Program-made: the position numbers and the translations under genes | In this document: piece by piece, positions 9,105-25,400 of the stretch | Numbering within the stretch: position 1 is the first letter of the stretch | Layout of the letters: each line of letters opens with the position of its first letter | Notes under the pieces: model-generated | Database searches by the model: none | The model's input: the letters and a program-made list of their open reading frames with translations, nothing else | Told to the model about the DNA's origin: nothing | Origin: an uncultured virus (IMG/VR IMGVR_UViG_2061766007_000545) | Lineage: Duplodnaviria; Heunggongvirae; Uroviricota; Caudoviricetes | IMG/VR virus record: IMGVR_UViG_2061766007_000545 | DNA length: 64,000 nt | Direction: 5' to 3' (one strand)

Positions 9105-9146
9105 CGCTGTCAAATTTTACTTTCGAAAAAAGTAAAGAAAGAAAAT

Positions 9147-9175
9147 TTGAAAAATAACTGAAAATCAGTTATAAT
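9147..9175 (+). promoter_or_regulatory. sigmaA-type promoter
   Basis: TTGAAA-17 bp-TATAAT. Confidence 0.7.
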
Positions 9176-9337
9176 ATATATAGAAAGATAAGAGAAGAGA
9201 AAATAAAAAGTCTGCTTCCTCTTTCGGAGATAGAAAAGAGACAGAACCCCGCACCGGCTAATCCGTTCTGCTTCTCTTACCTTTCAAAAAAAACTAAAAA
9301 AATTTGGCGCCACTGCCTAGTGTGAGAAGGAATTAAT

Positions 9338-9697
9338 ATGGATAAGAATGAGATGACTAAGAGAGATTTCTACACTGCAATTGTAGAGGGTAACGTAACT
9401 GATGAGGTTAAGGAGTTTGCTAAGGCTGCTATCGCAAAGCTTGATGCGGTAAATGAGAAGAGACGCAACACTCCGACTAAGGCGCAGAAGGAGAACGCAG
9501 AGCTTGTGGATAAGCTTGTGAATGAGATCCTTGGCGACGTTGCGAAGACTGCGGTTGACATCGCTGCTGAGTTTGGTACTATGACTCACCAGAAGGCTAC
9601 CGCTATCGCTAAGGCTGCCGTTAACGCTGGACTTGCGAAGGTTGAGGACGTTAAGGTTGCGGGCAAGGGTACTATGAAGGGTTATGTACTTGCATAG
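9338..9697 (+). CDS. putative winged-helix DNA-binding protein (paralog of 15508-15888)
   Basis: C-terminal helix-turn-helix-wing pattern DIAAEFGTMTHQKATAIAKAAVNAGLAKVEDVKVAGKG. Confidence 0.6.
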   Translation: MDKNEMTKRDFYTAIVEGNVTDEVKEFAKAAIAKLDAVNEKRRNTPTKAQKENAELVDKLVNEILGDVAKTAVDIAAEFGTMTHQKATAIAKAAVNAGLAKVEDVKVAGKGTMKGYVLA

Positions 9698-9711
9698 TAC
9701 GTAGAAGTAGA

Positions 9712-9743
9712 AGGACCACGCGTAATGCGTGGTCTTTTTTTTT
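9712..9743 (+). terminator. Rho-independent terminator
   Basis: GGACCACGC-gtaat-GCGTGGTCT + T run. Confidence 0.8.
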
Positions 9744-10110
9744 AAGGAGATTTCTAAGGAGATTTAACGTAGAAGCCTGCGCGCGGTCGTAGCTGTACGG
9801 ACATTAACAGCCTTGGNNNNNNNNNNATTTCTAAGGAGATTTGACGTAGAAGCCTGCGCGCGGTCGTAGCTGTACGGACATTAACAGCCTTGGGCGCAGT
9901 GTGCGTAGCTCCTGTCAAAATTTGACAGCCGTCAAAAACGTACTCCAGGTCGTAGCTGCGCAGCTTGCAGCTCCTCAAAATTTGACAGGGCGTATATTTG
10001 GATGGTATATGGTTTACTGTGTGGAATACGCACACGACCGAAAATTTGACAAAAGTGGAAATTAGACCTTAAAGGTCTAATAAAAAAAGAACCGCATTTG
10101 CGGTTCAAAT

Positions 10111-10290
10111 TTATCCAAGATAAATTATTCTTTCTTCATCATCAATTCCAATATTGTCCCAAATTAAGTTATGCACTACTCCTTCTTCTTCAGTAAACAC
10201 ACAGTAATTAGAAGGAAGTTCTGACAAAATTGAAATTAAATCTTTTACTGTAAGGATATCTAACCATTTTTTATTCTTTGGCGGCTTCAT
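10111..10290 (-). CDS. hypothetical protein (59 aa)
   Basis: MKPPKNKKWLDILTVKDLISILSELP; followed by terminator hairpin at ~10082-10106. Confidence 0.55.
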   Translation of the reverse strand: MKPPKNKKWLDILTVKDLISILSELPSNYCVFTEEEGVVHNLIWDNIGIDDEERIIYLG

Positions 10291-10477
10291 TTTCTTTTTC
10301 CTCTCTTTCCAAAAACTTTAGTACTTTTGGTACATCCTCTTGCGCGACATCATAAGTGCCATAAAGAATGCCTCGATAGTCATTAAAGTGAACACAAGTT
10401 CCATCAAGGTCGATTGCGTCAACTTTATTCAAGTTTACATAATAGCCATCAATTAGTTTTACAAAATTTCTATTCAT
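10271..10477 (-). CDS. hypothetical protein
   Basis: ORF in 4-gene cassette. Confidence 0.65.
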   Translation of the reverse strand: MNRNFVKLIDGYYVNLNKVDAIDLDGTCVHFNDYRGILYGTYDVAQEDVPKVLKFLEREEKENEAAKE

Positions 10478-10484
10478 TTTATTC

Positions 10485-10766
10485 TTACTCCATTTCTGCT
10501 ACTTCTTCACAAGAACAAAATTCACATACACTAAAACTTGTTCCACCACTTTCTCTATAAGATTCTTCAAGTTCTTCAAGCATAGATTCTCTCCGTTCAG
10601 CAGGGTCAAAATCTTCCTCGTCACAGTAGTCATAAAATTCACAAAAGTCATCGTCCTGAAGATTCATTATTTCTTCTTTAACAATCTCATAGGCTCTTTT
10701 TACGGATTTACATACATAATTTGTACCTTCAAAACCGCTATCATCATAATTAACTAATGCTAACAT
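10485..10766 (-). CDS. small highly acidic protein
   Basis: RBS AAGGA; D/E-rich. Confidence 0.7.
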   Translation of the reverse strand: MLALVNYDDSGFEGTNYVCKSVKRAYEIVKEEIMNLQDDDFCEFYDYCDEEDFDPAERRESMLEELEESYRESGGTSFSVCEFCSCEEVAEME

Positions 10767-11091
10767 TTTTTATTTCCTTTCCTTCGGCTAAATCTTTCAT
10801 TTTTTTATAGCGTGTAATAATATCTCTTATATCTTTATCAACATAAGCCTGAAGTTCTGATAAAAATGTTTCTTTACTACAAGGATAATATTCTGCTCGG
10901 TTTGACCACCAAGCTTCTTGTCTTTTGAAAAATTGAATAGAATCATCTAATTTAATATGATTATAAGTTCCGCTTGCATACATAACACAATAAATAGGCT
11001 TGTTATCATTATCGTAGACTATGTTATTTTTTTCATCTAAAAATTCTTCTGCCCCTTTAATAATTACAAAATCTCCATAACGTATTTTCAT
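10750..11091 (-). CDS. hypothetical protein
   Basis: RBS AAAGGAG directly after promoter. Confidence 0.75.
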   Translation of the reverse strand: MKIRYGDFVIIKGAEEFLDEKNNIVYDNDNKPIYCVMYASGTYNHIKLDDSIQFFKRQEAWWSNRAEYYPCSKETFLSELQAYVDKDIRDIITRYKKMKDLAEGKEIKNVSIS

Positions 11092-11217
11092 ATTATTTCT
11101 TGCTCCTTTCCTTTTCTTTATCTATATTATATCATACTTTTAGGAAAAGTCAACACTTAGTTCTAGACCTTTAAGGTCTAGTTTTATTTTAGAGAAAATT
11201 CGATTCTCCCCTTGGGG

Positions 11218-11670
11218 TTACTCTGTTTTGAGTAACCCCTTCAATACCTCAATAATCTCTTTTTCGGTCTTTGCTTCCGAACCACTCAGCGCCCAACCCT
11301 TGCGCACCTCTGCATTGTCATCAAAGAGAAAACCCTTGCGACCTTCGTGCTTTGGCGTGCCGTAGCGCACAACTTCAATCGAGTTAAACTTCACACTCTT
11401 GAGGTGAGTGGCGAGCCACTTCTTCTTCGTGCGCTCCACCTCTCTATCAAATTCAGGAGTAGCGGTAGCGGAACTCCAAGAGATAATCCCAATAAAATAT
11501 CCCTCATTCTGAAGCCGATTTAAGAGCCGAGCCAAAAGGCTCATATTCAACAGGGGCGCGCAGATTGCGTAAGGGCGAGGATTAAATTCCTTTAAATCAT
11601 CAATCCAAGTCGACACTCCGTAGAAGTCCGCAATCGTTCCGTCCATATCAAACCAAATTTCCTTAACCAT
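11218..11670 (-). CDS. HAD-superfamily phosphatase, 5'-nucleotidase-like
   Basis: IWFDMDGTIAD motif I, IISWS motif II, LFDD motif IV. Confidence 0.8.
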   Translation of the reverse strand: MVKEIWFDMDGTIADFYGVSTWIDDLKEFNPRPYAICAPLLNMSLLARLLNRLQNEGYFIGIISWSSATATPEFDREVERTKKKWLATHLKSVKFNSIEVVRYGTPKHEGRKGFLFDDNAEVRKGWALSGSEAKTEKEIIEVLKGLLKTE

Positions 11671-11832
11671 TTTTTTATTTCCTTTCTTTTTCTTTACACC
11701 CTTATTATACACCCATCAAACTAAAAAGTCAATCTCTTTTTAGGAAACAAATTAGACCTTTAAGGTCTAACTCTGCGGAAGAACGAAAGCGGAATTTCTT
11801 CCGCTTTCGCCCAAAGAAAAGAAAGGTTAAGA

Positions 11833-12582
11833 CTATTTAAGTCGAACTGTCGCTTTCGTTTTCTCGTACCGAATAGAGTTACAAGTAGTTTCATAAACCA
11901 CTTCATTATCTTTAATTACTCTAAACGGCTTTTCTACCTTGCGCTCGATACTACGAGGACAATCATAATCTTTCGTAAGGTCAGCGCCCATATCTAAACA
12001 ATAAAGGAGGATTTCGGTTTCAATTCTGCTATCACTCAATGCGGTGTGGTCTTCGATAAAAAGTACATTCTGCGTAAGGTAGCGATAGACAACCTCTGCG
12101 GTAGTGCTGTAGTTTCCGCTTTCGGTAAAGTAGTTATTTTCGGTACAAAAGTTTTTGTAGTCATCATCTACAATAAACTCGATTGCGTAGCCCCTAATGT
12201 CGTGAATCGGCATCTCATCAAATGGATTAAGGTTTTTATACCAATCACAGTTGAAGTCAAAGACTCTTTCATCAAAAGAACTATTAAAGGCGTAGGAGTG
12301 TTTTACTTCATACTCTCGGAAGTCCTTTCGCATCTGCCTACAAATGTAGCCGAATTTGTCCATTACTGTTTTGCGCTGACGCATAGCCGCCACATAAATT
12401 TCACGCTTGTCAGCATAGTAAGCGGAGCTAAACAAGGGCAAATTGTGCCATACCTGTTCTACTACAAAATCTCTCTCGACAAGGGTTTTGCGGGTTTCAG
12501 TGTTTACAATCACATATCCCACATTGTAACAGAACGGCTTGTCGAGAGAAGTCGTTTCCGTATCAAAAACACAAATATTCAT
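11833..12582 (-). CDS. DEDDh 3'-5' exonuclease (DnaQ-like)
   Basis: VFDTETT (ExoI), AFNSSFD (ExoII), HTALSD (ExoIII). Confidence 0.85.
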   Translation of the reverse strand: MNICVFDTETTSLDKPFCYNVGYVIVNTETRKTLVERDFVVEQVWHNLPLFSSAYYADKREIYVAAMRQRKTVMDKFGYICRQMRKDFREYEVKHSYAFNSSFDERVFDFNCDWYKNLNPFDEMPIHDIRGYAIEFIVDDDYKNFCTENNYFTESGNYSTTAEVVYRYLTQNVLFIEDHTALSDSRIETEILLYCLDMGADLTKDYDCPRSIERKVEKPFRVIKDNEVVYETTCNSIRYEKTKATVRLK

Positions 12583-12726
12583 TTCTTTTTGTTTCCTTTC
12601 TTTATCTTATGGCTTTATTATACACCTAAAGAAAACAAAAGTCAATACTTTTTTAAGGAATTTTCGGTTTTCTTTCGAAGATTTTCTAGACCTTTAAGGT
12701 CTAATTCAGATTGAAGAAAAAGCGGA

Positions 12727-13068
12727 TTACTCCGCCTTTTCTTCTTTTGCCTTGCGCTTTTCTGCGTCCTTCGCCATTTTTTTAGCTTTCTTCTTTTCGG
12801 CTTCCTCGGCTTTAATCCGTTTCTGCTCGACCTCAAAAGCATAATTGGAGGATTCAGCGTAGCCGTCATAGTCCTCTCCGCCACGAGTACCTGTAGGGAT
12901 AGAGAACACAGCCTTTACCCAGCCTTCTTCCATATCTTCGCCCACTACTTCGAGGGCAAGACCATTCGAGGCGACAACGAGGACAGTGTACCCCTCGGAT
13001 TCGAGATAAGTACGAACTTTGTCCATAATTTCGTTACGGCAAGGATTTAACTTTTTAGTATTTACCAT
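12727..13068 (-). CDS. hypothetical protein with Lys/Ala/Glu-rich tail
   Basis: Own promoter and RBS AAAGGAG. Confidence 0.75.
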   Translation of the reverse strand: MVNTKKLNPCRNEIMDKVRTYLESEGYTVLVVASNGLALEVVGEDMEEGWVKAVFSIPTGTRGGEDYDGYAESSNYAFEVEQKRIKAEEAEKKKAKKMAKDAEKRKAKEEKAE

Positions 13069-13199
13069 TGGCTTTTTGCTCCTTTCTGTTTCTTACACCC
13101 TTATTATACTACTATAAAAAGAAAATGTCAACAGTTTTTTTATAAGAAATTTTAGGGGAATTAGACCTCTAAGGTCTAACTACGTAGAAGGCGCGCCTT

Positions 13200-13433
13200 C
13201 TACTTCGCAACATATAATGCTAAAGAAAGAACGAAGATTGTAATTATATGAGTTACTACGAAAAAGAAAGTAGATTTTATTTCACAAAAGCAATCACAAA
13301 AATTTTCCCAAAAAGTGAATTTTTCTTGATAAAAATCTTCAAGTGCTTCTTTATTTTCTTTTAATTCTTTTATCGTCGCTTTAATCCATAAGATTTCGCC
13401 AATTATTAGCATCACAATCCAAATATATTTCAT
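13200..13433 (-). CDS. small two-TM membrane protein
   Basis: Hydrophobic termini; RBS AAAGGAG. Confidence 0.65.
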   Translation of the reverse strand: MKYIWIVMLIIGEILWIKATIKELKENKEALEDFYQEKFTFWENFCDCFCEIKSTFFFVVTHIITIFVLSLALYVAK

Positions 13434-13434
13434 T

Positions 13435-13695
13435 TTATACTCCTTTATAAAACATAATCAAAAAGAATACATTAAGTACAACACCGCTTAGGTGCATAAC
13501 CAAGCCGTTAATATGACGGTCGCTTGTCAGGTCTTTTACGATACCAACGAGCGCAATGAACAAGCCAAACCACGCAATACTTAATCCGAAAATCATAATC
13601 AAAATTACATTAAATACAGTTGCAAGGCATCTTAAATCGTTCCATTCAAATTCATAATCCTTTTCAATTTTAAAAAACTGTTTTACTTTTTCCAT
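13435..13695 (-). CDS. membrane protein
   Basis: Multiple hydrophobic segments; RBS AAAGGAGA before MEKVKQ. Confidence 0.7.
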   Translation of the reverse strand: MEKVKQFFKIEKDYEFEWNDLRCLATVFNVILIMIFGLSIAWFGLFIALVGIVKDLTSDRHINGLVMHLSGVVLNVFFLIMFYKGV

Positions 13696-13802
13696 CGGTC
13701 TATCTCCTTTCTTATGAATTAAGTATACCATAAGAAAAAGAAAAAGTCAATGATTTCTTTTTTAGGAAGTTAGACCTTTAAGGTCTAACAAGATTGTTGT
13801 GG

Positions 13803-14048
13803 TTAATTTTCCACAACAATATCATCAGAAATAAGAAAGTCAAGGAACTTTATTGTCGATTCAAAGTCGTCATCGTCATAGACTTTGTCATCGTCATCTT
13901 CAACGGACATGGCCCAAGTGTATCCTCCCATCACATCTGCGAATTGTCTGCGCAATTTTACTAGTTTATTAACCATTGAAATAATTTCATTTCTTTCATC
14001 GTCTGTAAGATATAAAAAAGCTCTATTATCTCTACGCAATTCTGCCAT
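13803..14048 (-). CDS. acidic hypothetical protein
   Basis: RBS GGGAGG. Confidence 0.7.
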   Translation of the reverse strand: MAELRRDNRAFLYLTDDERNEIISMVNKLVKLRRQFADVMGGYTWAMSVEDDDDKVYDDDDFESTIKFLDFLISDDIVVEN

Positions 14049-14051
14049 TTT

Positions 14052-14306
14052 TTATTCCTCCCATTTTTCATAAATTTCTGCTTCAAGTACTTCATAATTA
14101 TCAGACAAATCCGCATATTCCCACTCTTGTTTTGCTTTTGTTATAGCTTCCTCGTCATTAGAAGCGCTTACTGTAACAATAGCAGGGATTTTTACATATA
14201 CTCCTACTGTATACTCTTTAGTGGGACAATGTTCTTTCTCCCAATTTTGTGCTTGCCACAGTGTATCAAAAATTTTTCCATCATTAGTTTTATAAACTGT
14301 TTGCAT
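14052..14306 (-). CDS. hypothetical protein
   Basis: First gene after promoter; YKTNDGKIFDT N-terminus. Confidence 0.75.
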   Translation of the reverse strand: MQTVYKTNDGKIFDTLWQAQNWEKEHCPTKEYTVGVYVKIPAIVTVSASNDEEAITKAKQEWEYADLSDNYEVLEAEIYEKWEE

Positions 14307-14449
14307 TTTAGTATTTCCTTTCTTCTTTCTATGGTTTTATTATATCACACTAAAGTGAAAAGTGCAAGTCTTTTTTAGAAAAGGAATTAGACCTCTAAGG
14401 TCTAGTTCTACGTAGAAAGCGCGCCACCATTATCGGTGGCGGTGCGCCT

Positions 14450-14917
14450 TCACTTAAGGAGGTAATCTACTATATGACAAAGGAAGAAATGTCGTTTAAT
14501 AAAATCGATTGCCCAATCGGTTGCGTCCCATTCGCTTTTCATTTCAAAGTGGAGTACGGCAGCCGAGTTCCATTCTTTCTCGTTATCAGCAATCGAGCAA
14601 AGTAATTTTACAAGTGCGTCTTTCTCTTGCTCTGCTATTGCATCTTCTTCGGTATCAGCTTTTATATGTCCGATTTCGTGGAGTATAGTCCAAAGAAATG
14701 GAGAATAGTTTCGAGCGTTCTTGAATTTGTGGCGCTTTTCAATATGACTTATGAATAGGTCATCTGCGTCCGTATGGTTAAGATTTAAAATTATATAAGG
14801 AGGCTCATCAAAGACGCACTGATTTTCGGAAGTACGAGAGATAAAAACCTTACCTTCTTTTTTCAAAATAGATTTTGCAAAAATATTTGTGATAATTTCT
14901 TTTGCTTTCAGATTCAT
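14450..14917 (-). CDS. HExxH-motif protein (possible Zn metallopeptidase)
   Basis: WTILHEIGH and downstream EWDATDWA; RBS GAGGT before MNLKAKE. Confidence 0.6.
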   Translation of the reverse strand: MNLKAKEIITNIFAKSILKKEGKVFISRTSENQCVFDEPPYIILNLNHTDADDLFISHIEKRHKFKNARNYSPFLWTILHEIGHIKADTEEDAIAEQEKDALVKLLCSIADNEKEWNSAAVLHFEMKSEWDATDWAIDFIKRHFFLCHIVDYLLK

Positions 14918-15045
14918 CTGCCGTACCTCTCTTTCACTTTCTAAAACAAGTATAACATAAGAGAAAAGAAAAGTCAATCACTTTCTTTAAGGTAGATTAG
15001 ACCTTTAAGGTCTAGATAGATAAGAGGATTTAGTCCTCTTTTGTT

Positions 15046-15342
15046 TTAAATTTCTTCTGCGTCTTCTATTCCATTAAAATAGTTATTAATATCCTCTTCG
15101 GTTGCTTCCTGTACTTCATAGTAGCAACCATCCTGATACCACTCTATTGCATTTTCATACTCTTCTTCATTATCAAAATTGTCTGGTTCTCCTACGAGAT
15201 ACTCATAAAGAGAAGAGTAGTCATATAATCCTTCTTCCATCCAATCTTCTACTTCGCGCGGACTTTCTGCTAAAAAAAGATGGTATTCTTCAGTGCCACA
15301 GTATGGAGTAGAGTACTTTCCAATATAATATTTCTTTGCCAT
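15046..15342 (-). CDS. small highly acidic, Tyr-rich protein
   Basis: Own promoter, RBS, terminator. Confidence 0.75.
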   Translation of the reverse strand: MAKKYYIGKYSTPYCGTEEYHLFLAESPREVEDWMEEGLYDYSSLYEYLVGEPDNFDNEEEYENAIEWYQDGCYYEVQEATEEDINNYFNGIEDAEEI

Positions 15343-15507
15343 TTTATTTCTCCTTTCTTTTGTAATTTTATTATACTCCTTTTAAATAAAAAAGTCAATA
15401 ACTTTTTTAATTTTTCTAGACCTTTAAGGTCTAACTTCTCTTTGAAAAGTGGGGCGGAGTTCCACCGCCCCGATGTCCTAAAATTTGCGCTTGGGGAGGG
15501 AAGCCGA

Positions 15508-15888
15508 CTACTCGGCTTCTACCTCATCGGCATCGGCTACCTTGTAGGCAACCTGCTCGCCCTTACCCTTGACCTTAACCTTCTCGGTCACAAGTGCGCC
15601 CTCGTTCACAAGCAAACGAGCAACTCCCGTAACCTTCTGCGTGGTCAGACCAAGAGCCTTAGCGATTTCCGTACCAAGAACAGCGCCCTTGTCCTCAAGG
15701 AAAGCGAGAATCTCTGCCTTGACAGGCTCGTTCTCCTTCTGCTTCTTGTTAGGGGTGTTCTTGCGCTTCTCGTTCTTTGCATCAAGCCCCTTAATCAGAG
15801 CTACACGCTTTGCTTCGTCATCTCCCTGAAGATTGTACTTTGCAAGTCCTTCAAGGAATGCTCTCGTTGTCATAATCTCTACTGCCAT
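15508..15888 (-). CDS. putative winged-helix DNA-binding protein (paralog of 9338-9697)
   Basis: EILAFLEDKGAVLGTEIAKALGLTTQKVTGVARLLVNEGALV; shares LDAxNEKRxNTPxKxQKEN with 9338; two tandem promoters (~15943-15972, ~16045-16074). Confidence 0.65.
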   Translation of the reverse strand: MAVEIMTTRAFLEGLAKYNLQGDDEAKRVALIKGLDAKNEKRKNTPNKKQKENEPVKAEILAFLEDKGAVLGTEIAKALGLTTQKVTGVARLLVNEGALVTEKVKVKGKGEQVAYKVADADEVEAE

Positions 15889-16270
15889 AATGTTTTTCCT
15901 TTCTTGCGGTTTGGTCGCAACCCTTTCTCTTTTTTACACTTTTATTATATCACAAGATTTTCGGTTTGTCAAGAGTTTTTTTAATTTTTTTTGAATTTTT
16001 TTTTGAAGTGCTTTGCGCTCTTGCCTTTCCTTATCTTGTAACCTTATTATACTACCGAAAAGAGAAAAAGTCAATCCCTTTTGAAAAGATTTTTCGGAAT
16101 AAATTAGACCTCTAAGGTCTAATTAAATACCACCATGAATAGGATCCCGAAGGTTTTTTAACCTATTCTCTCTGTGCTTATTGGTGGTGATAAGCCCCTC
16201 ACTTACGCAGCAGGCGCGCTTTGGTAAGATAGGAAACTCGTCCTTGCGCATTATTCTTACTCAAAGTTGA

Positions 16271-16343
16271 TGATGCTCTGATGGGACTCGAACCCATACC
16301 CCCAGCCAATAAGGCTGATATTCTGCCAATTAAACTAAGAGCA
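16271..16343 (-). tRNA. atypical tRNA-like gene, anticodon UAU (Ile-like), possibly degenerate
   Basis: TGCTCT-TAGTTTAATTGGCAGAATA-TCAGC-CTTATTG-GCTGG-GGGT-ATGGG-TTCGAGT-CCCAT-CAGAGCA-TCA; canonical D and T loops, imperfect acceptor stem. Confidence 0.6.
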
Positions 16344-16601
16344 TTTTAGGTAGACCGTTTCTCGTATGGTTCGAAAACTAAAAAGATGGTCAGTCTTTTT
16401 AAAAAATAACCCTCACTTTATCGGCGAGACCGCCACAGTTCCGTATGTGGGACTTACGAGAAGAGGTATCCGAAGTTTTATCTCGATTTATTATCTCCGT
16501 TCCTTACCTTCTGAAGTAATTATATCATAGAAGAATTAAAAAGTCAATACCTTTTTAGGAGAGTTATCTAGACCTTTAAGGTCTAAGTGTAATCCGTATT
16601 T

Positions 16602-17002
16602 CTACGGATTCTGTAAAAGCATATTGATACTATCGGCAAAATCTTCTTCTTCCTCTTCTTCATCAGGAAACATTTTCTTACTACACTCCTCGCACATACC
16701 GAGAATCATTTCTCTTTCTCCTGCGGTAAGATAAGGGAATGCTTTCTGAACAAGTTCGCCTTCTTCAAACTCCCAAAAGTCATCTTCGTTTACCCAAATA
16801 GAAGCACATTTTCTGCACCATCTACAAGAGCAAAGCATCTCGACTTCTTTATGATTCTCTTTCTTTTCATGCAGACGCTCGTGCGCATTGTCCACCGCAT
16901 CTCTTAATTCTTTCTTTGTTGCAATGTCATCTTCGTAAGCAGTAATCATATTTGCAAGATACTCGATAAAATCTTCCNNNNNNNNNNAATAAAATCTTCC
17001 AT
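16602..17002 (-). CDS. hypothetical protein with Cys clusters (gap near start)
   Basis: MEDFIEYLAN...CSCRWCRKC...CEEC. Confidence 0.65.
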
Positions 17003-17119
17003 TAGTTTTTCCTCTCTTTCTTTTTTGTAACTCTACTATAGCATAGAAAGCGCGCAATGTCAATAGAAAGAGTTAGACCTTTAAGGTCTAATTAGTTCCA
17101 CGGATTTCCGTGGATTAAA

Positions 17120-17488
17120 TTAGTACCATCGAGTAAAAATATGATACTGAAGTTTTGCTTTTGAAAAAATTTCTTGGTTTCTCATAAAAAATTCTTTTGC
17201 TTTATCGAGAAAATTACTGAATTCCTCTATATCTTCTATAGGAAATACTTCATTTACAAGTTCTTCTAAAGAAGAGAAATGAATATCTCTATCCTTTATT
17301 GGGCGCCAATATCCAATAAAAACATCATCTGCGGTATACGCATCTCTAATTAAGACCAAATCATTATCAACAATATAGTCGTGAAGTTCTCCTCCGCCTA
17401 TTTCTGCAATAGAGTCAAGTGCATTTTCAAAATCATTTTCACGAATCATAATCCCATATCCTATTACAACTTCGCATTCTACTGACAT
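17120..17488 (-). CDS. hypothetical protein; cargo of the cassette missing in the alternate haplotype
   Basis: Own promoter and RBS AAAGGAGA. Confidence 0.75.
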   Translation of the reverse strand: MSVECEVVIGYGIMIRENDFENALDSIAEIGGGELHDYIVDNDLVLIRDAYTADDVFIGYWRPIKDRDIHFSSLEELVNEVFPIEDIEEFSNFLDKAKEFFMRNQEIFSKAKLQYHIFTRWY

Positions 17489-17806
17489 TTTCTTTCTCCT
17501 TTCTTTTTATAATTTAAGTATACTATAAACCATTAACTTTGTCAATCATATTTCAGGAAGTTTATTAGACCTTTAAGGTCTAATACTACGTGGAAAAGAA
17601 AAGGGAATAAATCCCTTTTCTTTCCTATGAAGAATATGTGTATCATTATAAGCGCTATCTAATGCGCTCATATANNNNNNNNNNACATAGAAAGCGCGCA
17701 ATGTCAATAGAAAGAGTTAGACCTTTAAGGTCTAGTTCTGCGTGGAAAAGAAAAGGGAATAAATCCCTTTTCTTTTCTATGAAGAATATGTGTATCATTA
17801 TAAGCG

Positions 17807-18335
17807 CTATCTAATGCGCTCATATACAACACGATAGGAGTAGGCTTCGGTTTTGCCACTATGACCATATCCTTTATAAACTGTAGTATCTTTTACCTTA
17901 CTCCGAACCTTAACAAGTTTAAGGTANNNNNNNNNNAGCTTCAGTTCTGCCACTATGACCATATCCTTTGTAAACTGTAGTATCTTTTACCTTACTCCGA
18001 ACCTTAACAAGTTTAAGGTAACCCTCGTTTACTAAATCGTAAAAAGCGCAAACTGTAGAGCGAGAGGCTCCCCACTTACTACCGGGCGTAATCAAATCAC
18101 CAATCTTCGTGTCGTTGAGAATCTCTTTCTTTCGTCTGTCGATACGAACATTATTCGATCTGCGCTCGCTTTCATTGATAATAGTCCGAATAGCGTCATA
18201 ATAAGCAAAATCAGCTATTGAATCTTCAGAGGGACTAAGCACAATTTCAATAGCCTTACTTACGTCCTTTTCACCGTGCAGATAATACTTCTGACTTACT
18301 TCCATTTTTTCAAATCTGTCGTTTAACTTTACCAT
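17807..18335 (-). CDS. hypothetical protein (3' end duplicated across gap)
   Basis: MVKLNDRFEK...GYGHSG(K/R)TEAYSYRVVYERIR. Confidence 0.65.
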
Positions 18336-18482
18336 TTCTTTTTTTCTTCCTTTTCTTTTTTTATTTTAGAAGTATCTCTCTTCTATGATTAAAGTATACC
18401 ATAAGAGAAAAGAAATTGCAAGTCTTTTTTAAGAGATAAGTTAGACCTTTAAGGTCTAGTTTTGGTTGAAGAAAGAGAGGGA

Positions 18483-18782
18483 CTATGCCCTCTTCTTTAA
18501 CTTTTCAACTTCGCGCTTGTATGCATTGGCATACTGCAGGGGATTGTCATACGGAATGACTTTCTTTTCCTTAAGAGCCTTGCGGTACTTAGTGGCTCGT
18601 ACTTCGTCAGCGCGCGACCTTGCATCGCGTTCATCATCAGTTAACCCATCCCATCCGATAAGAGTAGCCTTGAGGTCTGCGCCCTCTACTTCGCGCGATG
18701 CCTGTGCGTCTGCAAGTGTGCTTACAACCATTCCATCAATTTCGCCTTTTTTATTAAGTTCTGCATATACAAGTTTGTTCAT
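18483..18782 (-). CDS. hypothetical protein
   Basis: Own promoter, RBS GAGGT, terminator overlapping stop. Confidence 0.75.
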   Translation of the reverse strand: MNKLVYAELNKKGEIDGMVVSTLADAQASREVEGADLKATLIGWDGLTDDERDARSRADEVRATKYRKALKEKKVIPYDNPLQYANAYKREVEKLKKRA

Positions 18783-19324
18783 ATTAGGATTACCTCTCTC
18801 TTTCTTTATTTTGTAACTTTATTATATCATTTTTTAGAAAAAAGTCAATAGTATGAATTAGACCTTTAAGGTCTAACTCTGCAGACGGCGCATTATAATG
18901 CGTCGTCGCCTTTGAAATTCTTAAACTTATCCCAAAGCACAATCGTTACGGAAGTAATGCAACCTGCAATAAATCCAAATAATGCGCCAAATACAAATCC
19001 AATTACTGCTCCCATTTTTCTACCTCGGCTCTAATATTATATGGAGATATAGTTTTATCTTCTTCGCAACAATATGCGTTAAAGGGGCACTCTCTACACT
19101 CTCCCATATCTTCACAAGCATCTACGATACCTTTCATCGCCTCAATCATTTTTGCTTGCGCGTCATTAAGTTCTATTTTCTTTTCTGGNNNNNNNNNNTT
19201 ACGCAGACGGCGCATTATGATGCGTCGTCGCCTTTGAAATTCTTAAACTTATCCCAAAGTACAATCGTTACGGAAGTAATGCAACCTGCAACAAATCCGA
19301 ATAATGCACCAAATACAAATCCAA

Positions 19325-19775
19325 TTACTGCTCCCATTTTTCTACCTCGGTTCTAATATTATATGGAGATATAGTTTTATCTTCTTCGCAACAATATGCG
19401 TTAAAAGGGCATTCTCTACACTCTCCCATATCTTCACAAGCATCTATGATACCTTTCATTGCCTCAATCATTTTTGCTTGCGCGTCATTAAGTTCTATTT
19501 TCTTTTCTGGAGAAGGCATTATCTCTTCTTCAAAAGTTTTCTTCAAATATTCCTCAAAACTTTCAAGAAAAGCGTTCTCTTCCCAANNNNNNNNNNTTTT
19601 TCTTCAAATATTCCTCAAAACTTTCAAGAAAAGCGTCCTCTTCCCAATAAAAAATATCGCCAACATTATCCGCAAAGTTACTCATTAACTGACCGAATCT
19701 CCAATCGGGGCAATACTTCTTATGAAGTTCCTTAATCTTCTCGTAAAATTCATCAAGTCTATTTGCATCTCTCAT
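19325..19775 (-). CDS. hypothetical protein with CxxCPF Cys cluster (split by gap; allele at 19003-19188)
   Basis: MRDANRLDEFYEKIKELHKKYCPDWRFGQL joins EEYLKKTFEEE...CRECPFNAYC. Confidence 0.6.
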
Positions 19776-19792
19776 TTTACTTTTCTCCTCTC

Positions 19793-19957
19793 TTAATAAT
19801 CCCAACCGAACATCTCACGCCATTCATCATCTTCTTCATCAGCGAAACAGCCGATAAAAACAAAAGCCTCTTCTTCTTCATAGGGAGTATCATCTCTGTA
19901 ATACTCTTCGGGAGTTACGAAAGCATCAACTCTTTCATCATAAATAAATCTTGCCAT
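19793..19957 (-). CDS. small acidic protein
   Basis: RBS GAGGT before MARFIYDE. Confidence 0.65.
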   Translation of the reverse strand: MARFIYDERVDAFVTPEEYYRDDTPYEEEEAFVFIGCFADEEDDEWREMFGWDY

Positions 19958-20089
19958 TTTAATTACCTCTCTTTCTTTGGCTTGCGCCTTTTCTTTTTTA
20001 CAAGTAAAGTATATCATAGAAAAGAAAGAATGTCAACCGTTTTCTAAAAATTTTCTTAGACCTTTAAGGTCTAACTATGGAATGGGATT

Positions 20090-20419
20090 TTATTCCCATT
20101 CCTTGAACCATCTATCCATTTCTCTAATAAGGTCGAACCAATATCTATCGAGGAATTCTTCGATTTCTTCAGACCAATCAAGGTCAAAATCATCTTCTAT
20201 CCAACTAAAGCAACCCTCAAATTCACTTTCAATCCAAAAGCGAACTTCATTCTTGAGTCTTTCGGTAATATTTTCTCCATAACGATAAATTGTATCAAGG
20301 TCTTTATAAATTTCTCCAATATAGTCATAATCACTATTATAAAGAGATTTGGTCATATTGTCATAAAGTTTTGAATAAAACTCATCTTCGCTTCTTCGAG
20401 ATTTGAATTTAAGTTTCAT
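20090..20419 (-). CDS. acidic, Trp-rich hypothetical protein
   Basis: Own promoter and RBS. Confidence 0.75.
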   Translation of the reverse strand: MKLKFKSRRSEDEFYSKLYDNMTKSLYNSDYDYIGEIYKDLDTIYRYGENITERLKNEVRFWIESEFEGCFSWIEDDFDLDWSEEIEEFLDRYWFDLIREMDRWFKEWE

Positions 20420-20543
20420 AAGTAGTTACCTCTCTTTCTTTACTGTGATTAAAGTATATCATATACCTTAATTTTTGTCAATCCTTTTTAAAAAAGAAAA
20501 TCGGAATAAATTAGACCTTTAAGGTCTAACTTGGTTTGGCGCA

Positions 20544-20759
20544 TTACCATGCGCCTTCACGACACGATTTTAATTCTTCCAACCACTGAATCATTTGGTA
20601 GTTCCATTCTTTCTGATGGGCAACCCATTTTAATTCATCTTGATATTCTCGGATAACGCTTTCTGCGTCTTCCTCACAATAGATTTTTTGTTCTCTTTCT
20701 TCTGCTTCTTGGTATTTCATTCTATAATAGAGAATTGCGCTATTTAGTTCAAATTTCAT
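20544..20759 (-). CDS. hypothetical protein
   Basis: Overlaps upstream gene end; RBS AAAGGA. Confidence 0.65.
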   Translation of the reverse strand: MKFELNSAILYYRMKYQEAEEREQKIYCEEDAESVIREYQDELKWVAHQKEWNYQMIQWLEELKSCREGAW

Positions 20760-21090
20760 TTTTGGTTCCTTTCATAATTGCTTTACAGTTAGGGCAGAAG
20801 TTATAACTACATTTATTATAATCATTTTTTACTACTTCTCCACATTCGCTACACTTGTAATAGTATCCATAAGTTTCGCCCATTCCGCAACCTTCGCTCC
20901 AATAACTACCTCTTATCCACATTCCGACTTTATGTTCTTCGTAAGATTCTTCTTCATCATCTGCTTTGATGGTCGGAGCAAGATGTATATAATTCCAAAA
21001 GGCGCAATCCTCTTCGCAACCCGGCATTTTACGGCACATTTCTGTACACCACTTTTCTTGCAAAGCATCAGCATCAATCAATCTTCCCAT
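20749..21090 (-). CDS. zinc-ribbon protein
   Basis: MGRLIDADAL start; CSECG...FCPNC. Confidence 0.75.
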   Translation of the reverse strand: MGRLIDADALQEKWCTEMCRKMPGCEEDCAFWNYIHLAPTIKADDEEESYEEHKVGMWIRGSYWSEGCGMGETYGYYYKCSECGEVVKNDYNKCSYNFCPNCKAIMKGTKNEI

Positions 21091-21248
21091 TTTCTTTTTG
21101 CTCCTTTTTATGAAAGTTTCTCTTTCTTTATCTTTCTAAAAAAATTATATCATATTTTTGGAAAAATTTCAAGTTTTAATTTTCTTTTCTTGTTAGACCT
21201 CTAAGGTCTAATTACCCCTTCTGCAGAAGGGGCGGTATTGCATCTATA

Positions 21249-21563
21249 TTATAGAGGATAAGTATCCTCTAATAACATTCCAACAACTATTTCGATTACA
21301 TCGTTAGCCGTAAGCCAACCACGAACAGTATCTCCGCATTCGTCCTCGTCTACGATACAGCCCATAATCTCGAGCAATCCATCTTCGTGACCATAGCTTC
21401 CGCTATGGCATACGGCATCCCAGGCACGGCTATTATCTTTTGAATAAACAACAATCTGCGCACCATCAAAGAAGGTCTTAAAGGTAAAACGAAAATTATT
21501 CGTCGCCAACCAACAACAAAGTTTTCCGAGTTCCGTAAGGTTAATTGCTTCTTTTTCTTTCAT
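21249..21563 (-). CDS. hypothetical protein
   Basis: WDAVCHSGSYGHEDGLLEIMG; own promoter and RBS. Confidence 0.75.
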   Translation of the reverse strand: MKEKEAINLTELGKLCCWLATNNFRFTFKTFFDGAQIVVYSKDNSRAWDAVCHSGSYGHEDGLLEIMGCIVDEDECGDTVRGWLTANDVIEIVVGMLLEDTYPL

Positions 21564-21733
21564 ACTGCTTAACTCCTTTCTTTTACTATACTTATTATAA
21601 TATATAAAAAACAAAAAGTCAACACCTTTTTAAAACTTAATTAGACCTTTAAGGTCTAACAAATCAATTGCTACACCGGGGCGCGCCAACAACGCACGTC
21701 CCGGCGGGTTCTGACACCTGTTTTCCTTCAGGC

Positions 21734-21907
21734 TTAGTACACATCGTAGGGATACCACTCAGACTCTTCTTCGGTCATTACCGTAACAAGCTTAGGACTT
21801 TCAAAAAGTCTTTCAGCAAAGAGAATAGCCTGTAGTTTATCATTTGCGTTTACGAAGAAATCTTCGCCCGTTTCTTCATCATTAAATAAGTAGTACATTT
21901 CTTTCAT
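21734..21907 (-). CDS. small acidic protein (57 aa)
   Basis: MKEMYYLFNDEETGEDFFV; RBS GAGGT; own promoter. Confidence 0.7.
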   Translation of the reverse strand: MKEMYYLFNDEETGEDFFVNANDKLQAILFAERLFESPKLVTVMTEEESEWYPYDVY

Positions 21908-22032
21908 ATCTGTTTACCTCTCTTTCTTTTGTAACTAAAGTATATCATAAGTAAGAAAGAATGTCAAGTACTTTGGAAGAGATTTGTTAGACCTATAAGG
22001 TCTAATTACCTCCCTTTCGGGAGGCGGAGGTT

Positions 22033-22341
22033 TCAACAGTATATTAAGGAATAGTTAGCCCACTTAAATATTGAAATTTGGTTACACTCACGTCCGAGCG
22101 CCAGCGCTTTTTTCTTCGTGCTGATGCGCTTCGACTTATCAATATACCAAATTCCATTTTCAAGCCACAAACCACAATTTCCGTTGTAGCGCTTCATTAT
22201 CGAGCGCACTTTTGTGATGTCGGTTGTGGTTTCGCCTTCTGTAGCTACTTGATAGCCACTTTTATAATTTATAATTTTACCATCTTTAAGAGTAAGACCG
22301 CCATTATTTTCGATTTTGCGAAGTGTTCTGATGTTTATCAT
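22033..22341 (-). CDS. basic hypothetical protein
   Basis: Own promoter; RBS GGGAGG. Confidence 0.75.
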   Translation of the reverse strand: MINIRTLRKIENNGGLTLKDGKIINYKSGYQVATEGETTTDITKVRSIMKRYNGNCGLWLENGIWYIDKSKRISTKKKALALGRECNQISIFKWANYSLIYC

Positions 22342-22859
22342 TTTTTGTTCCTCCCTTTTCTTACTATAGTCATTATATCATATTCAATTTAATTTGTCAA
22401 TCATTTATAAAGAGATGAATTAGACCTTTAAGGTCTAATTCAGATAAGGAAAAAAGAGAGTTCGCGACCTCTCTTTTTTCCCCAAGTTCTCGAGTTACTT
22501 GTCTTTTTTCATTCTTTGCTTTGCGGATAAAGATAAACCCTTCTGCAGAGAGTTTCCTCGGTTTTCTTGTATGCTTTGCGATGGAAAACCGCCCACTCTC
22601 AAGTCTAAAAGAAACCGTACCCCATAAGGAAAGTAACTACACACAACCCAACCTCTTGAGTCGATTGCCCTCACCACTCCTCAGTATCACCTCGTTGCTT
22701 ATCTCTTATGTTGGTTTTAGTATACCATAGAAAAAGAAAAAAGTCAATACTTTTTTAGAAATAAATTCAGATAAATTAGACCTTTAAGGTCTAGATTCAA
22801 TGCACGAAGCGCACTTTGGTCGCTTCATGCACAAGATAATTTGACGCTAAAAGATTTAC

Positions 22860-22958
22860 TTATCTCAAATAGTTATTTGCGATAAAAATAATAATGTCAA
22901 TAAAACCCGAAATTGCAATAAGAATTTTCGCTACCACTTTAAGAATCATATTTTTCAT
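22860..22958 (-). CDS. 32-aa hydrophobic peptide
   Basis: MKNMILKVVAKILIAISGFIDIIIFIANNYLR; RBS AAAGGAGA; sole cargo of its cassette. Confidence 0.6.
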   Translation of the reverse strand: MKNMILKVVAKILIAISGFIDIIIFIANNYLR

Positions 22959-23083
22959 TTTTGTTATCTCCTTTCTTTTTGTAATTAAAGTATAACATAG
23001 ACTTTATTTTTTGTCAATACTTTTCTGAAATAAAAACTAAATAAAATTAGACCTTTAAGGTCTAATAATAAAAGAAGAGGACA

Positions 23084-23293
23084 TTAGTCCTCTTTAATCC
23101 CTAAGATTTTAAAGTAGTCATCGAGTTCTGCCAGCGCCACTTTAGGGTCTCCCTCTTGGAGAGCTTCGCCTAAAGCAAGGAGAGAATACCGAGCCGCGCT
23201 AATCGCGAGACTCTGATTAGTATTTAATTCATGAAATGCTCTTGCATCTTCGAGTTTGTCTAACATTTTATTAATAAGTTCAAAGTGTGTCAT
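23084..23293 (-). CDS. hypothetical protein
   Basis: Own promoter, RBS, terminator. Confidence 0.75.
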   Translation of the reverse strand: MTHFELINKMLDKLEDARAFHELNTNQSLAISAARYSLLALGEALQEGDPKVALAELDDYFKILGIKED

Positions 23294-23407
23294 AGTGTTT
23301 ACCTCTCTTTCTTTTGTAACTTAAGTATAACATAGAAAAGTTAAAATGTCAACCACTTTTTGGAAGTTAAATTAGACCTTTAAGGTCTAACTTTATTTGG
23401 AAGAGAT

Positions 23408-23683
23408 TTACTCTTCCATTTTCGCACCACACCACGGACAGTATGGAGTAAGTAACTCTTCCGTGCATACTTGCCAACCACATTCGGAACATTCAAAAGT
23501 ATCGACAAGAAAAGGATTTACTTTTATCCATATTCCTTTCCGTTCCTCGTAAGGTTTTAGAGGACAGTTATCGTCTCTCTTATTGTTCAACCAACCGTTT
23601 GCCAATCCGTACTCGCATCGAGTTTTTAATTGGCACTCGGAACAACTGTTCGGCATATTCATATTTGTTAAAATTACGCTCAT
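23408..23683 (-). CDS. zinc-ribbon protein
   Basis: MPNSCSEC and CSECG...YCPWCGAKM. Confidence 0.75.
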   Translation of the reverse strand: MSVILTNMNMPNSCSECQLKTRCEYGLANGWLNNKRDDNCPLKPYEERKGIWIKVNPFLVDTFECSECGWQVCTEELLTPYCPWCGAKMEE

Positions 23684-23874
23684 TTTTGTTTACCTCCCTT
23701 TTTGTAATTAAAGTATATCATACACTTTTAATTTTGTCAATCACTTTTAGAAAAACTTTTCAGATTAAATTAGACCTTTTAGGTCTAACTCATAAAATAC
23801 CGCGAGAGCGCGCCTAGTCTCCCAGCAGCGCGCCCTCGGGCATAAGGAGGTGTGCTATGATTTTTGATAACGAG

Positions 23875-23966
23875 AGGGATAGGTGGGAGTCGAACCCACG
23901 AGCCTACAGAGCTTGTAAGTCTTAAGCCTTACAAGGGCACAGACAATCCGGTCTGCTAACTATCCC
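23875..23966 (-). tRNA. non-canonical tRNA-like RNA with CUUAAGA (Leu UAA-like) loop
   Basis: 7-bp acceptor GGGATAG/CTATCCC, T arm GTGGG-TTCGACT-CCCAC, 6-bp D-like stem, 8-bp anticodon-like stem; no encoded CCA. Confidence 0.6.
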
Positions 23967-24231
23967 ATATTTACCGCGAGGGAAGGAAAAGCGGAGGAAT
24001 TTTTTGAGGAATTTCTTTTTCCTTCCCTCATCTTCTGACGTAAGTATACCAAAATTTTTGAGAAAAGTCAATACTTCGAATTAGACCTTTAAGGTCTAAC
24101 TCTACGAAAAAAAAAGAGAAGTCTTTCGACTTCTCTACGGGATTACTCCGATTAAACTTTTCAAACCCATCCTACGGGCGTTACCGCGTAGGCTTAGCTA
24201 CTGAGTGTCTTTCTTTCCCGATTTATAAAAG

Positions 24232-24402
24232 TTAGTTCCTTACTCTATAATAAATAAGGAAGTACTTTTTGATACAACTGAACCGCTCACCATCGAGCGT
24301 CCAAAACTCATCATAGCTACCGCGACGTCCTTCGCGCGCGAGTGCGTCCAAGATAAGGTCTTTTTTTCTTTTTGAATTTACTTTTACAATCTGAATTGTC
24401 AT
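24232..24402 (-). CDS. hypothetical protein (56 aa)
   Basis: MTIQIVKVNS...GRRGSYDEFWTLDG; RBS AAGGAGG; own promoter. Confidence 0.7.
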   Translation of the reverse strand: MTIQIVKVNSKRKKDLILDALAREGRRGSYDEFWTLDGERFSCIKKYFLIYYRVRN

Positions 24403-24609
24403 TGTAGCATTCCTCCTTTTCTTTTATACACTGATTATACTACAAAAAACCGATTCTGTCAAGTGATGCGCGCTCGATAAAACTAGACCTTTGAGGTCTA
24501 ACTTTATTTCGGGAATAGTTATGCGATCGTTCTGAATATTTATTCATGAATATTTATTCAGTAAAAAGTGTATAAAAAAAAGAGCGGGATTTCTCCCGCT
24601 CTTTTCGGT

Positions 24610-25171
24610 TTAGATTTCGTCATCGAAGAGACCGAGGTCATCTTCCCAATCTCCCCAATCTTCAATATAATCTTCGTCAAGACCGAAGTCATCGAGAAGA
24701 GACTTGAAGTAGGTATCCCAATCAGGTTTCGGAATCGGGGCGGGAATTCCATCTTCCGCCCATTCCTTGAGGAGCGTCCAATCCCAATCGCCCCATTCCT
24801 CTTCGTCATCATCAACCTTCCAAAGAAGTCCGCCATACATATTGCCATCGGCATAGGCNNNNNNNNNNGGGTTTCGGAATCGGGGCGGAAATTCCATTTT
24901 CCGCCCACTCTTCGAGGAGCGTCCAATCCCAATCGCCCCACTCCTCTTCTTCGTCATCAACCTTCCAAAGAAGTCCGCCATACATATTGCCATCGGCATA
25001 GGCAAGACAAGCGCCCTCTTCGTCAAGCAATTCCAATTCAAACTTTTCGAAGTAGACCGTTGACAGCACAGTCAGTCTATCGTTAAAGAGAGTGCTTGCA
25101 ACATCAAGGTCAAAGTAGTGGTTTTCGATAATCTCAAGGGTCTCAAGGTTAGTTAATCTTAAAGTATACAT
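24610..25171 (-). CDS. very acidic Trp/Asp/Glu-rich protein (internal allele duplication at gap)
   Basis: MYTLRLTNLE...DDEEEEWGDWDW...DWGDWEDDLGLFDDEI; terminator ~24575-24606. Confidence 0.7.
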
Positions 25172-25208
25172 AGGTTTCTCCCTTTCGTAGTGGGGAGTAG
25201 GCTTGCGC

Positions 25209-25400
25209 CTACTCCATATAGTCATCATATACAATGATGGTGCGCTCTTCATCTTCCGTCTCATAGGGCTGTCGTGCTCTGATGATGATGTTATGACCGT
25301 ACTTCTTCGTAAGCTCAAACAAGTCCTCAAGAGTGCTAATCTGAATGTACTCCTCAAAGCTCCAATCACTTGCTTTCTCTACTCTAACTGTCGTTGCCAT
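25209..25400 (-). CDS. hypothetical protein
   Basis: RBS AAAGGAG. Confidence 0.7.
   Translation of the reverse strand: MATTVRVEKASDWSFEEYIQISTLEDLFELTKKYGHNIIIRARQPYETEDEERTIIVYDDYME

Follow-up and report, generated by a model that had tools for sequence, protein, structure and literature searches.

The PeSL cassettes of the T4-type phages RB49 and phi1 consist of small orphan early genes with strong promoters of their own and stem-loop terminators, and they are shuffled by crossovers, as set out by Arbiol et al. (2010, PMC2839356). In SPbeta, one motif (SPBRE) recurs at about ten early units and is bound by MrpR, a protein of tyrosine-recombinase fold that maintains lysogeny, according to Kohm et al. 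(2023, PMC10516654). The present analysis concerns a cassette array in an uncultured rumen phage (IMG/VR record IMGVR_UViG_2061766007_000545), in which the palindrome TAGACCTNNNAGGTCTA (TAGACCT-N3-AGGTCTA) occurs in 28 exact copies, all of them between positions 10063 and 24500 of the 64,000-nucleotide (nt) stretch analysed (the window). The operon at the head of the array begins with a gene for a protein of 173 amino acids (aa) and predicted nuclease fold, the leading candidate for binding the palindrome.

The array resembles the PeSL cassettes in its host-type early promoters with an AT-rich tract, and in having repeated intergenic modules as crossover points. PeSL stem-loops vary in sequence and in position, in or around the promoter, whereas the palindrome is exact, stands apart from the cassette-specific terminator and is phased. 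Further differences are its lineage-specific arms, the PD-(D/E)xK gene that travels with it and has a half-site in its own promoter, and the phage itself, which has a Firmicutes-type host and a long tape-measure tail and is no T4-type myovirus. With SPBRE the array shares one short motif in the promoter regions of many early units of a large Firmicutes siphophage, and the window terminase gives distant YonF-like hits (SPbeta). SPBRE is bound by an enzyme-fold phage regulator; the protein considered here is a candidate only, with a predicted restriction-enzyme fold and intact catalytic residues, and the sites differ in that each is a perfect palindrome in phase upstream of the −35 hexamer and that a genome has about 27 of them. 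The array is set apart from both systems by an exact, phased, lineage-specific palindrome together with a nuclease-fold partner.

The stoperators of mycobacteriophage L5 number in the tens and serve the immunity repressor (gp71) of a temperate phage; they are asymmetric, orientation-dependent and situated within transcribed DNA. The temperate Streptomyces phage phiC31 has 17-bp conserved inverted repeats beside its early promoters, likewise for an immunity repressor. Both are like the array in placing many copies of one short site across the early region, although the present site, unlike a stoperator, is a perfect palindrome between terminator and promoter, and we know of no phasing, nuclease-fold partner or cassette-boundary role for either. 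At CAP-type class I sites, and with p4 of phi29, a dimer sits upstream of −35 in one-turn steps and acts through the C-terminal domain of the polymerase alpha subunit; the likeness is one of geometry only, the candidate protein here being unrelated. The array differs from an integron, with its attI site and imperfect, variable attC sites, in that no integrase was found in the 94-kb relative or among the window ORFs scanned, the sites are identical, and every cassette has its own promoter. I-TevI is a nuclease that binds a target-like operator overlapping its own promoter and acts as an autorepressor (Edgell et al. 2004, as presented in PMC2988022). It has a GIY-YIG fold and one homing site; the candidate here has a predicted PD-(D/E)xK fold, its phage carries the full site about 27 times, and its own promoter contains a half-site.

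Palindrome, cassette layout and occurrence

The expected number of exact copies was 0.00 (100 shuffles), and a search of the 64-kb window at up to two mismatches recovered the same 28, with no degenerate or stray copy. A first-pass annotation made from the letters alone had reported 28 copies with invariant arms, and had set the motif apart from PeSL, SPBRE and stoperators; all of this was confirmed. The element is effectively 19 bp long: the 17-mer is preceded by T and followed by A in 18 of the 28 window copies, and among metagenome copies the flanking T is present in 87 of 87 and the A in 85 of 87, which gives a 19-mer with a free 3-nt centre. A single-nucleotide polymorphism inside a palindrome (11171), visible among the joints and variants listed, is located in the free centre.

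On the − strand, a hairpin ends 0–10 nt upstream of 27 of the 28 palindromes, while at the head copy (24484) the terminator of the head operon is about 75 nt upstream. Behind 27 of the 28 copies is a TTGACA-17-(TG)TATAAT-type promoter (score 10–13 of 13), then a ribosome-binding site (RBS) and one to four small open reading frames (ORFs), or a tRNA; AT-rich upstream tracts are seen at cassette promoters. The tail copy (10063) follows the last terminator and has no promoter behind it. The palindrome therefore occupies the gap between terminator and promoter and, coming after the one and before the other, lies outside the transcripts. Strong promoter-like sites number 29 in the window, 26 of them on the − strand, and 24 of these 26 have a palindrome within 70 nt upstream.

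The order of elements previously proposed for each unit (terminator, palindrome, promoter, RBS, ORFs or RNA) stands, hairpin and promoter each being found at 27 of 28 copies, with the exception of the unit at 17718 and the duplicated ORFs. The window is a metagenome scaffold in which N10 runs are bordered by 94–98% identical overlaps. The 242-bp piece at 17685–17926, which carries copy 17718, is from an alternative haplotype: the cassette 17 promoter, a single palindrome and the 3′ end of cassette 14 are joined in it, and what is missing is exactly cassette 16 and one palindrome (492 bp). Both the apparent unit of 135 bp and the duplicated 40-aa ORFs in the unit of 1181 bp are hence artefacts of scaffolding. 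Since copy 17718 is on the alternative piece, the number of copies per genome is 27, or 26 where cassette 16 is absent.

The window encodes phage functions, including terminase (29680–31485), portal, a 1924-aa tape measure, Dit, a sigma-like protein (27049–28422), NrdD and dUTPase. The array is on the − strand, adjoining and diverging from the + strand structural genes. The genome is roughly 130 kb (the longest matching contig is 131,894 bp), and the window covers about half of it.

A scan for the palindrome with a TTGAC nearby gave 112 metagenome stretches and 42 genome-collection stretches, with 38 loci having at least two copies. After removal of unrelated look-alikes (L136/L220, L169/L240, L226, L242, L103 and L159), 30 loci remained (49 kb; GC 0.35–0.50), with 87 distinct exact sites against 6 near-misses. 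Cargo proteins common to the window and other contigs are just 27–42% identical, a degree of conservation far below that of the site. The search for relatives that had been suggested thus yielded about 30 short contigs from metagenomes and metagenome-assembled genomes (MAGs), and one IMG/VR phage with the same motif, a 94-kb contig (L058–L060, 76% complete) in which eight copies are exact and a ninth has one mismatch. In this relative the array is syntenic but inverted, terminase segments are about 50% identical (tblastx), and three to four cassettes are homologous and in the same order.

Five MAGs with array contigs contain no further sites. The idea of a host regulon was rejected on this ground, and because most of the 42 genome-collection stretches are single, unrelated matches. 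Among INPHARED phages there was no DNA match to the array and no protein match to the 457-aa sigma-like protein, and an IMG/VR locus search with the sigma-like protein alone gave nothing. The five nearest named phages by terminase (E3, VRE9_4, Phass-1, KKP_3916 and Sundance) have no palindrome copy at up to one mismatch, and no comparable repeated palindrome was seen in Phass-1 (1–23.2 kb) or E3 (1–34 kb). Arrays of this layout occur widely in metagenomes of rumen, gut and digester origin; literature searches found no paper on the exact motif or on the layout, and a search on phiC31 inverted repeats gave nothing relevant.

Helical phasing and cassette exchange

The distance d from the palindrome centre to the first T of −35 was determined for the 27 promoters. 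From the array head, the copies lie at 24484–24500 (copy 1, d = 30), 24082–24098 (copy 2, d = 19), 23771–23787 (copy 3, d = 39), 23373–23389 (copy 4, d = 29), 23048–23064 (copy 5, d = 39), 22777–22793 (copy 6, d = 38), 22421–22437 (copy 7, d = 29), 21988–22004 (copy 8, d = 29), 21642–21658 (copy 9, d = 28), 21194–21210 (copy 10, d = 30), 20512–20528 (copy 11, d = 39), 20057–20073 (copy 12, d = 29), 18859–18875 (copy 13, d = 19) and 18442–18458 (copy 14, d = 29). Copy 15 (17718–17734), on the alternative-haplotype piece, has its promoter cut by an N run and was set to d = 19 by identity with copy 17. The remainder are at 17566–17582 (copy 16, d = 29), 17074–17090 (copy 17, d = 19), 16569–16585 (copy 18, d = 30), 16105–16121 (copy 19, d = 39), 15417–15433 (copy 20, d = 27), 14998–15014 (copy 21, d = 29), 14388–14404 (copy 22, d = 29), 13771–13787 (copy 23, d = 29), 13162–13178 (copy 24, d = 39), 12687–12703 (copy 25, d = 50), 11753–11769 (copy 26, d = 29), 11164–11180 (copy 27, d = 19) and 10063–10079 (copy 28, the promoter-less tail).

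The values are therefore 19 (five times), 27, 28, 29 (ten times), 30 (three times), 38, 39 (five times) and 50, with a Rayleigh R of 0.93 at 10.1 bp that was reached by none of 20,000 random sets. The gap between palindrome and preceding terminator (0–10 nt) shows no comparable register. Relative to the promoter, the site thus keeps to a single face of the helix, with positions near −54, −64, −74 and −85. Such a one-turn spacing series is the textbook pattern of class I activation.

The same preference was seen in other contigs with this motif. For 80 sites, d fell at 17–22 (39 sites), 28–32 (23), 37–39 (8), 48–51 (7) and 65–70 (3), with none at 23–27, 33–36 or 40–47 (R = 0.79, equalled by none of 20,000 random sets). 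These are the sites with a good promoter among the 110 in all 38 multi-copy loci, look-alikes included; the metagenome scan had demanded a TTGAC 10–40 nt away at one site per locus, and no register. About 10% of sites in other contigs have no promoter. Lineages with other arms are also phased (19, 29–30, 39–42, 50–52, 60–62 and 70–71; R = 0.87, 0.73 and 1.00). Natural placement at 19, 29, 39 and 50 (and 61 and 71 in other lineages), with intermediate positions avoided, speaks of where sites are placed and not of function by position. The earlier proposal that one site co-regulates all units gains support from this phasing, from the position in the gap and from the 24 of 26 − strand promoters.

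Metagenome runs from several studies (bovine and other gut) contain parts of the array, and their contigs were compared with 9900–24700; the joints given here are those among the matches listed. Joint 21201→21650 lies inside two palindromes (copies 10 and 9) with ten letters that fit both sides, and removes cassette 9 (21211–21641, − strand), which is absent from contigs of two other studies (X7 and X8). In X7, cassette 20 is missing at joint 14989→15417 and cassette 3 at 23360→23768, and joint 16557→13758 is a reordering. X8 lacks cassettes 16–17 (16558→17566), and a second X8 contig lacks cassettes 6–11 (20036→22774). Such exchange joints are inside palindromes or within about 20 nt of them. 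Several cargo replacements extend from a palindrome as far as its own unit's promoter or RBS (among them 18464→19987 and 24115→24399), while three joints are away from palindromes (10767→11104, 23431→23541 and 23865→23965). Joints that go back, which are mini-circle candidates seen in contigs only, have short sides (34) and lie in promoter look-alikes.

Because an identical sequence flanks every cassette, the palindrome is a point at which related phages gain, lose and reorder cassettes. The first-pass annotation had proposed it as an exchange point, and reasoned that relatives with identical cassette content and order, and breakpoints unrelated to the palindrome, would speak against this; the contigs of other studies, and one piece of the window's own scaffold (17685–17926), show instead whole-cassette losses and rearrangements with joints at palindromes. 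No integrase or resolvase was found in the 94-kb relative (PF00589 included; contig 76% complete) or among the 81 window ORFs scanned with Pfam, which belong to a partial genome. The remark that no recombinase gene is visible in the window was thus correct for integrase-type genes, but it passed over the PD-(D/E)xK nuclease-fold gene at the array head.

Candidate binder and competing explanations

The first gene of the head operon (26043–26564, − strand) encodes the 173-aa protein, with a predicted PD-(D/E)xK (PvuII/Bsp6I-like) nuclease fold. It has 83 uncharacterised homologues; D25, D56, E70 and K72 are invariant (41 sequences), and the (E/D)xK motif is kept in all six palindrome groups. Its structure was predicted with a local distance difference test score (pLDDT) of 90. 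The neighbours given by VIA are type II restriction enzymes, with Z of 6.7 (3ndh_B; root-mean-square deviation 4.1, 130 aligned), 5.8 (NhoI) and 5.0 (NaeI), followed by the PD-(D/E)xK homing endonuclease I-Ssp6803I (4.9) and Hjc (4.7); all are middling scores, below the VIA caution line of Z = 8. The Atlas lead was the RE_Bsp6I cluster (0.93, 173 shared features). There was no Pfam match, and a PDB sequence search gave none either.

An IMG/VR alignment search returned 22 homologue loci on contigs of 13–145 kb. All 22 carry a palindrome array of the same geometry that starts 0.1–1.1 kb from the gene (in L261, on its other side), with lineage-specific arms (TTAGATGT, TTAGACGT, TTAGACGA, TTAGACG or TGGGACGT). 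With TTAGACCT, these are the arms found across lineages; they differ by lineage while the geometry is constant, and so specificity belongs to the phage and not to the host.

The promoter of the head operon (26713–26741, − strand) has no palindrome upstream, and carries the half-site GGTCTAA (26727–26733) in its −35/−10 spacer. A cognate half-site of 7–8 nt occurs in the homologue's own core promoter in five of eight lineages (the window, L259, L260, the L262 group and L278/9; in L260 it was seen by eye, in an equally scoring promoter). Non-cognate half-sites were positive in 0 of 33 tests, and the chance of a given hexamer in a 17-bp spacer is about 0.6%. In the protein tree the palindrome types need five changes, the fewest possible; relatives share labels, which makes this weak evidence.

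We lean towards the explanation that the palindrome is an operator for a phage-made dimer, likely the 173-aa nuclease-fold protein, acting on about 27 early promoters, and that it is also an exchange point. On this reading it is a DNA site maintained by strong selection. A sequence-specific dimer would bind the 17-mer or 19-mer in the untranscribed gap between terminator and promoter, and would act on RNA polymerase from a constant side of the helix, at one to four turns before −35 and at all of the roughly 27 early promoters simultaneously. Its source would most likely be the head operon, which lacks the palindrome. With a half-site in its own promoter, repression is implied at that place, and the protein probably represses itself through the −35/−10 spacer. 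Crossovers at the sites may come about by ordinary recombination or with the help of cleavage.

Several observations weigh against this explanation. The fold assignment has no significant match by Foldseek alone (best E 0.099), and catalytic residues that never vary point to an active nuclease more than to a protein that only regulates. Activation seems superfluous at promoters that are near-consensus as they stand, and repression from −54 to −85 would need a special mechanism. Gene and array may occur together only because these phages share an ancestor. Neither the GGGACG group nor L261 has the half-site, that of L258 is ambiguous, and the L258 homologue is 48–49% identical to that of the window and yet has a different palindrome. 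In the 94-kb relative, the palindromes are 53–104 bp from −35 and unphased, with a different motif phased instead, and half of the array promoters have no palindrome. A protein search and a HMMER alignment-profile search of this relative for the head gene gave no match; its head-operon homologue is barely detectable (hhalign probability 19%; E 6.7e-5 with a hidden Markov model from 23 sequences) and has QxK instead of ExK. Identical arms with very different proteins are a poor fit with that protein setting the specificity.

A bolder form of the operator explanation is possible, though we are rather doubtful of it. Here a small protein of restriction-endonuclease fold, its catalytic residues intact, would have been recruited as master regulator of the whole early programme. 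Made first from the promoter that has no palindrome, it would later shut this promoter at the half-site, and would dock as a dimer on the roughly 27 palindromes and so switch all cassettes together; cutting or nicking there would make hot spots of exchange between co-infecting relatives, with arms and protein changing together. It would then be a new class of phage transcription factor, there would be regulatory specificity groups within a large clade of uncultured gut and rumen phages of 100–145 kb, and gene regulation would be linked mechanistically to modular genome evolution.

If the protein does cut, the palindrome might be mainly a cleavage or recombination site, cut or nicked as by a homing or restriction enzyme, with repair moving the cassettes within and between co-infecting phages, any effect on transcription secondary, and the half-site serving autorepression only, on the I-TevI pattern. 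The D...(E/D)xK residues, invariant or nearly so in all homologue groups, point that way, as do the nearest folds (type II restriction enzymes, a PD-(D/E)xK homing endonuclease and junction resolvases) and the cassette-precise joints in palindromes and in the scaffold haplotype. There are also n+1 sites for n cassettes, the promoter-less tail included, besides the promoter-less sites (about 10%) of other contigs. However, a recombination site needs no 10-bp register to −35, and this register is kept in every lineage tested bar the 94-kb relative. The phage would have to cut its own genome about 27 times, while no methyltransferase or other protection family was found among the window ORFs scanned, which represent a partial genome. 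The three joints away from palindromes, and 24115→24399, also fit poorly, and any exact repeat of 17 bp serves ordinary phage recombination, without a dedicated nuclease, as is argued for PeSLs (PMC2839356). We regard a site of this kind as improbable, slightly more so than another binder. On that other view, itself unlikely, the palindrome is bound by a member of a winged-helix family, by a phage protein encoded outside the window or by a host factor, and the nuclease-fold gene is a regulated target: from the half-site it follows only that the head promoter is under the binder's control, and the binder need not be the product of the head gene, and the window holds only about half of a genome of roughly 130 kb.

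The winged-helix candidate is the cargo of cassette 19 (15508–15888, − strand; with an extra, palindrome-less promoter at 15944–15972), a protein whose DNA-binding domain resembles those of ArsR/SmtB, MarR and PadR. A homologue is present in the 94-kb relative (33% identity), and 17 of the 22 nuclease loci have one to three paralogues (39 ORF hits, the relative included). The recognition helix of the family (S/T-x-Q-K-x-S/T-x-L-x-R) is nearly constant across palindrome types in spite of their different arms, for which reason it was rejected as the determinant of specificity. A paralogue (40% identity) just past the array tail (9338–9697, + strand) has its own promoter (9147–9175), in which the palindrome is an unrelated one (9155–9171). 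A host factor fails to explain lineage-specific arms that change with the half-site, or the five MAGs without extra sites. Finally, the palindrome could be a structural element, either an RNA hairpin acting as a back-up terminator or processing site, or an insulating DNA cruciform. A stem of 7–8 bp with a loop of 1–3 nt can be formed, the palindrome lies within about 15 nt of a terminator hairpin (about 75 nt for the head copy), and several terminators have no clear T run. But an element placed after the terminator and before the promoter is little transcribed, its stem is short for cruciform extrusion, and its arms never vary within a genome, so that sequence and not pairing is conserved; the register, too, is kept to −35 and not to the terminator. 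We consider a structural role highly improbable.

In the genomes of large phages, nothing is less understood or more variable than the early, host-takeover regions. The array is a clean and tractable handle on one of these, since it combines a single site of 19 bp with one small protein as candidate, spacing that follows a strict rule, and at least six lineages that supply natural variants of the specificity. Should the nuclease-fold protein prove to bind the site, phages would have a master regulator of a new kind, which could also become an orthogonal, programmable part for promoter control in Firmicutes. The cassette-precise joints between strains give a natural-population view of the trade in orphan early genes, and suggest the regulatory site as its currency.

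Related phage, cargo and flanking sequences

A second palindrome, TGAATAAATATTCA, is present in two tandem copies (24533–24560, − strand) between the head operon terminator and copy 1. In the 94-kb relative (L058, 10030–14050), a related motif, ATGAACAAATTGTAAAC, stands 14 or 22–24 nt before −35 at most palindrome-bearing promoters and is hence phased. A conserved hairpin, GTTAGT-N4-ACTAAC, closes many cassettes of the relative (10 copies, L058 5772–13955), and CCCGGG often adjoins its palindromes. In the late genes of the relative (L058 1–4400; IMGVR_UViG_3300031994_000047), TAG codons occur in frame: the terminase frame has 11 and the sigma-like gene has 2. The relative's early array has a normal reading, the window is intact under table 11, and the named relative Phage Phass-1 is placed under the 'code 15 clade' of NCBI. 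The arms of the various arrays (TAGACC, TAGACG, TAGATG and GGGACG) have a GAC/GAT core in common with the −35 hexamer TTGACA.

Most cargo proteins belong to no Pfam or PHROG family. Cassette 18 carries a tRNA-Ile(TAT) (16272–16343, − strand), and cassette 2 a 93-nt tRNA-like RNA (23874–23966, − strand) that ARAGORN assigns to Thr, anticodon TGT. The latter has a long inserted arm, the fold of its cassette has a z-score of −3.6, and it is replaced in one other strain (joint 23865→23965). A scan of 9000–27500 with Rfam gave only the tRNA and, for the 93-nt RNA, a weak and partial match resembling transfer-messenger RNA. Around the second promoter of the winged-helix gene (15925–16007), a stretch of about 60–80 nt occurs in many unrelated contigs and is deeply covered in each of the four runs, reaching 218x in X4. 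The unique exact palindrome TAACTGAAAATCAGTTA spans the spacer and −10 of the promoter of the winged-helix paralogue past the tail, and looks like an autoregulatory operator of that gene.

Between the tail palindrome and the convergent + strand genes (9900–10055) are three copies of a AAAATTTGACA-type motif, one of them within a 17-bp palindrome. A cluster of tandem repeats at 7230–8063 is made up of 12–15-nt units such as TACGTAGATAAG, in 2–3.4 copies each, and seven TACGTA-N6-TACGTA palindromes; it is iteron-like and may be an origin of replication. On the other side of the array, the piece at 25711–25995 sits between two N10 runs on the opposite strand. Colinearity with the relative (66–73% aa identity, tblastx) puts it into the 237-N gap (29189–29425) of the gene at 28674–29696, and it looks like a scaffold misplacement.

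The conserved tail cassettes (11218–11670 and 11833–12582) encode a 5′-3′ deoxyribonucleotidase-like protein and a DnaQ-like exonuclease, and a 317-aa dUTPase/dCTP-deaminase-like protein is encoded at 58616–59569. Taken together, these genes hint at a phage that may change its nucleotide pool or the bases of its DNA; this would matter for how it protects itself from a nuclease.

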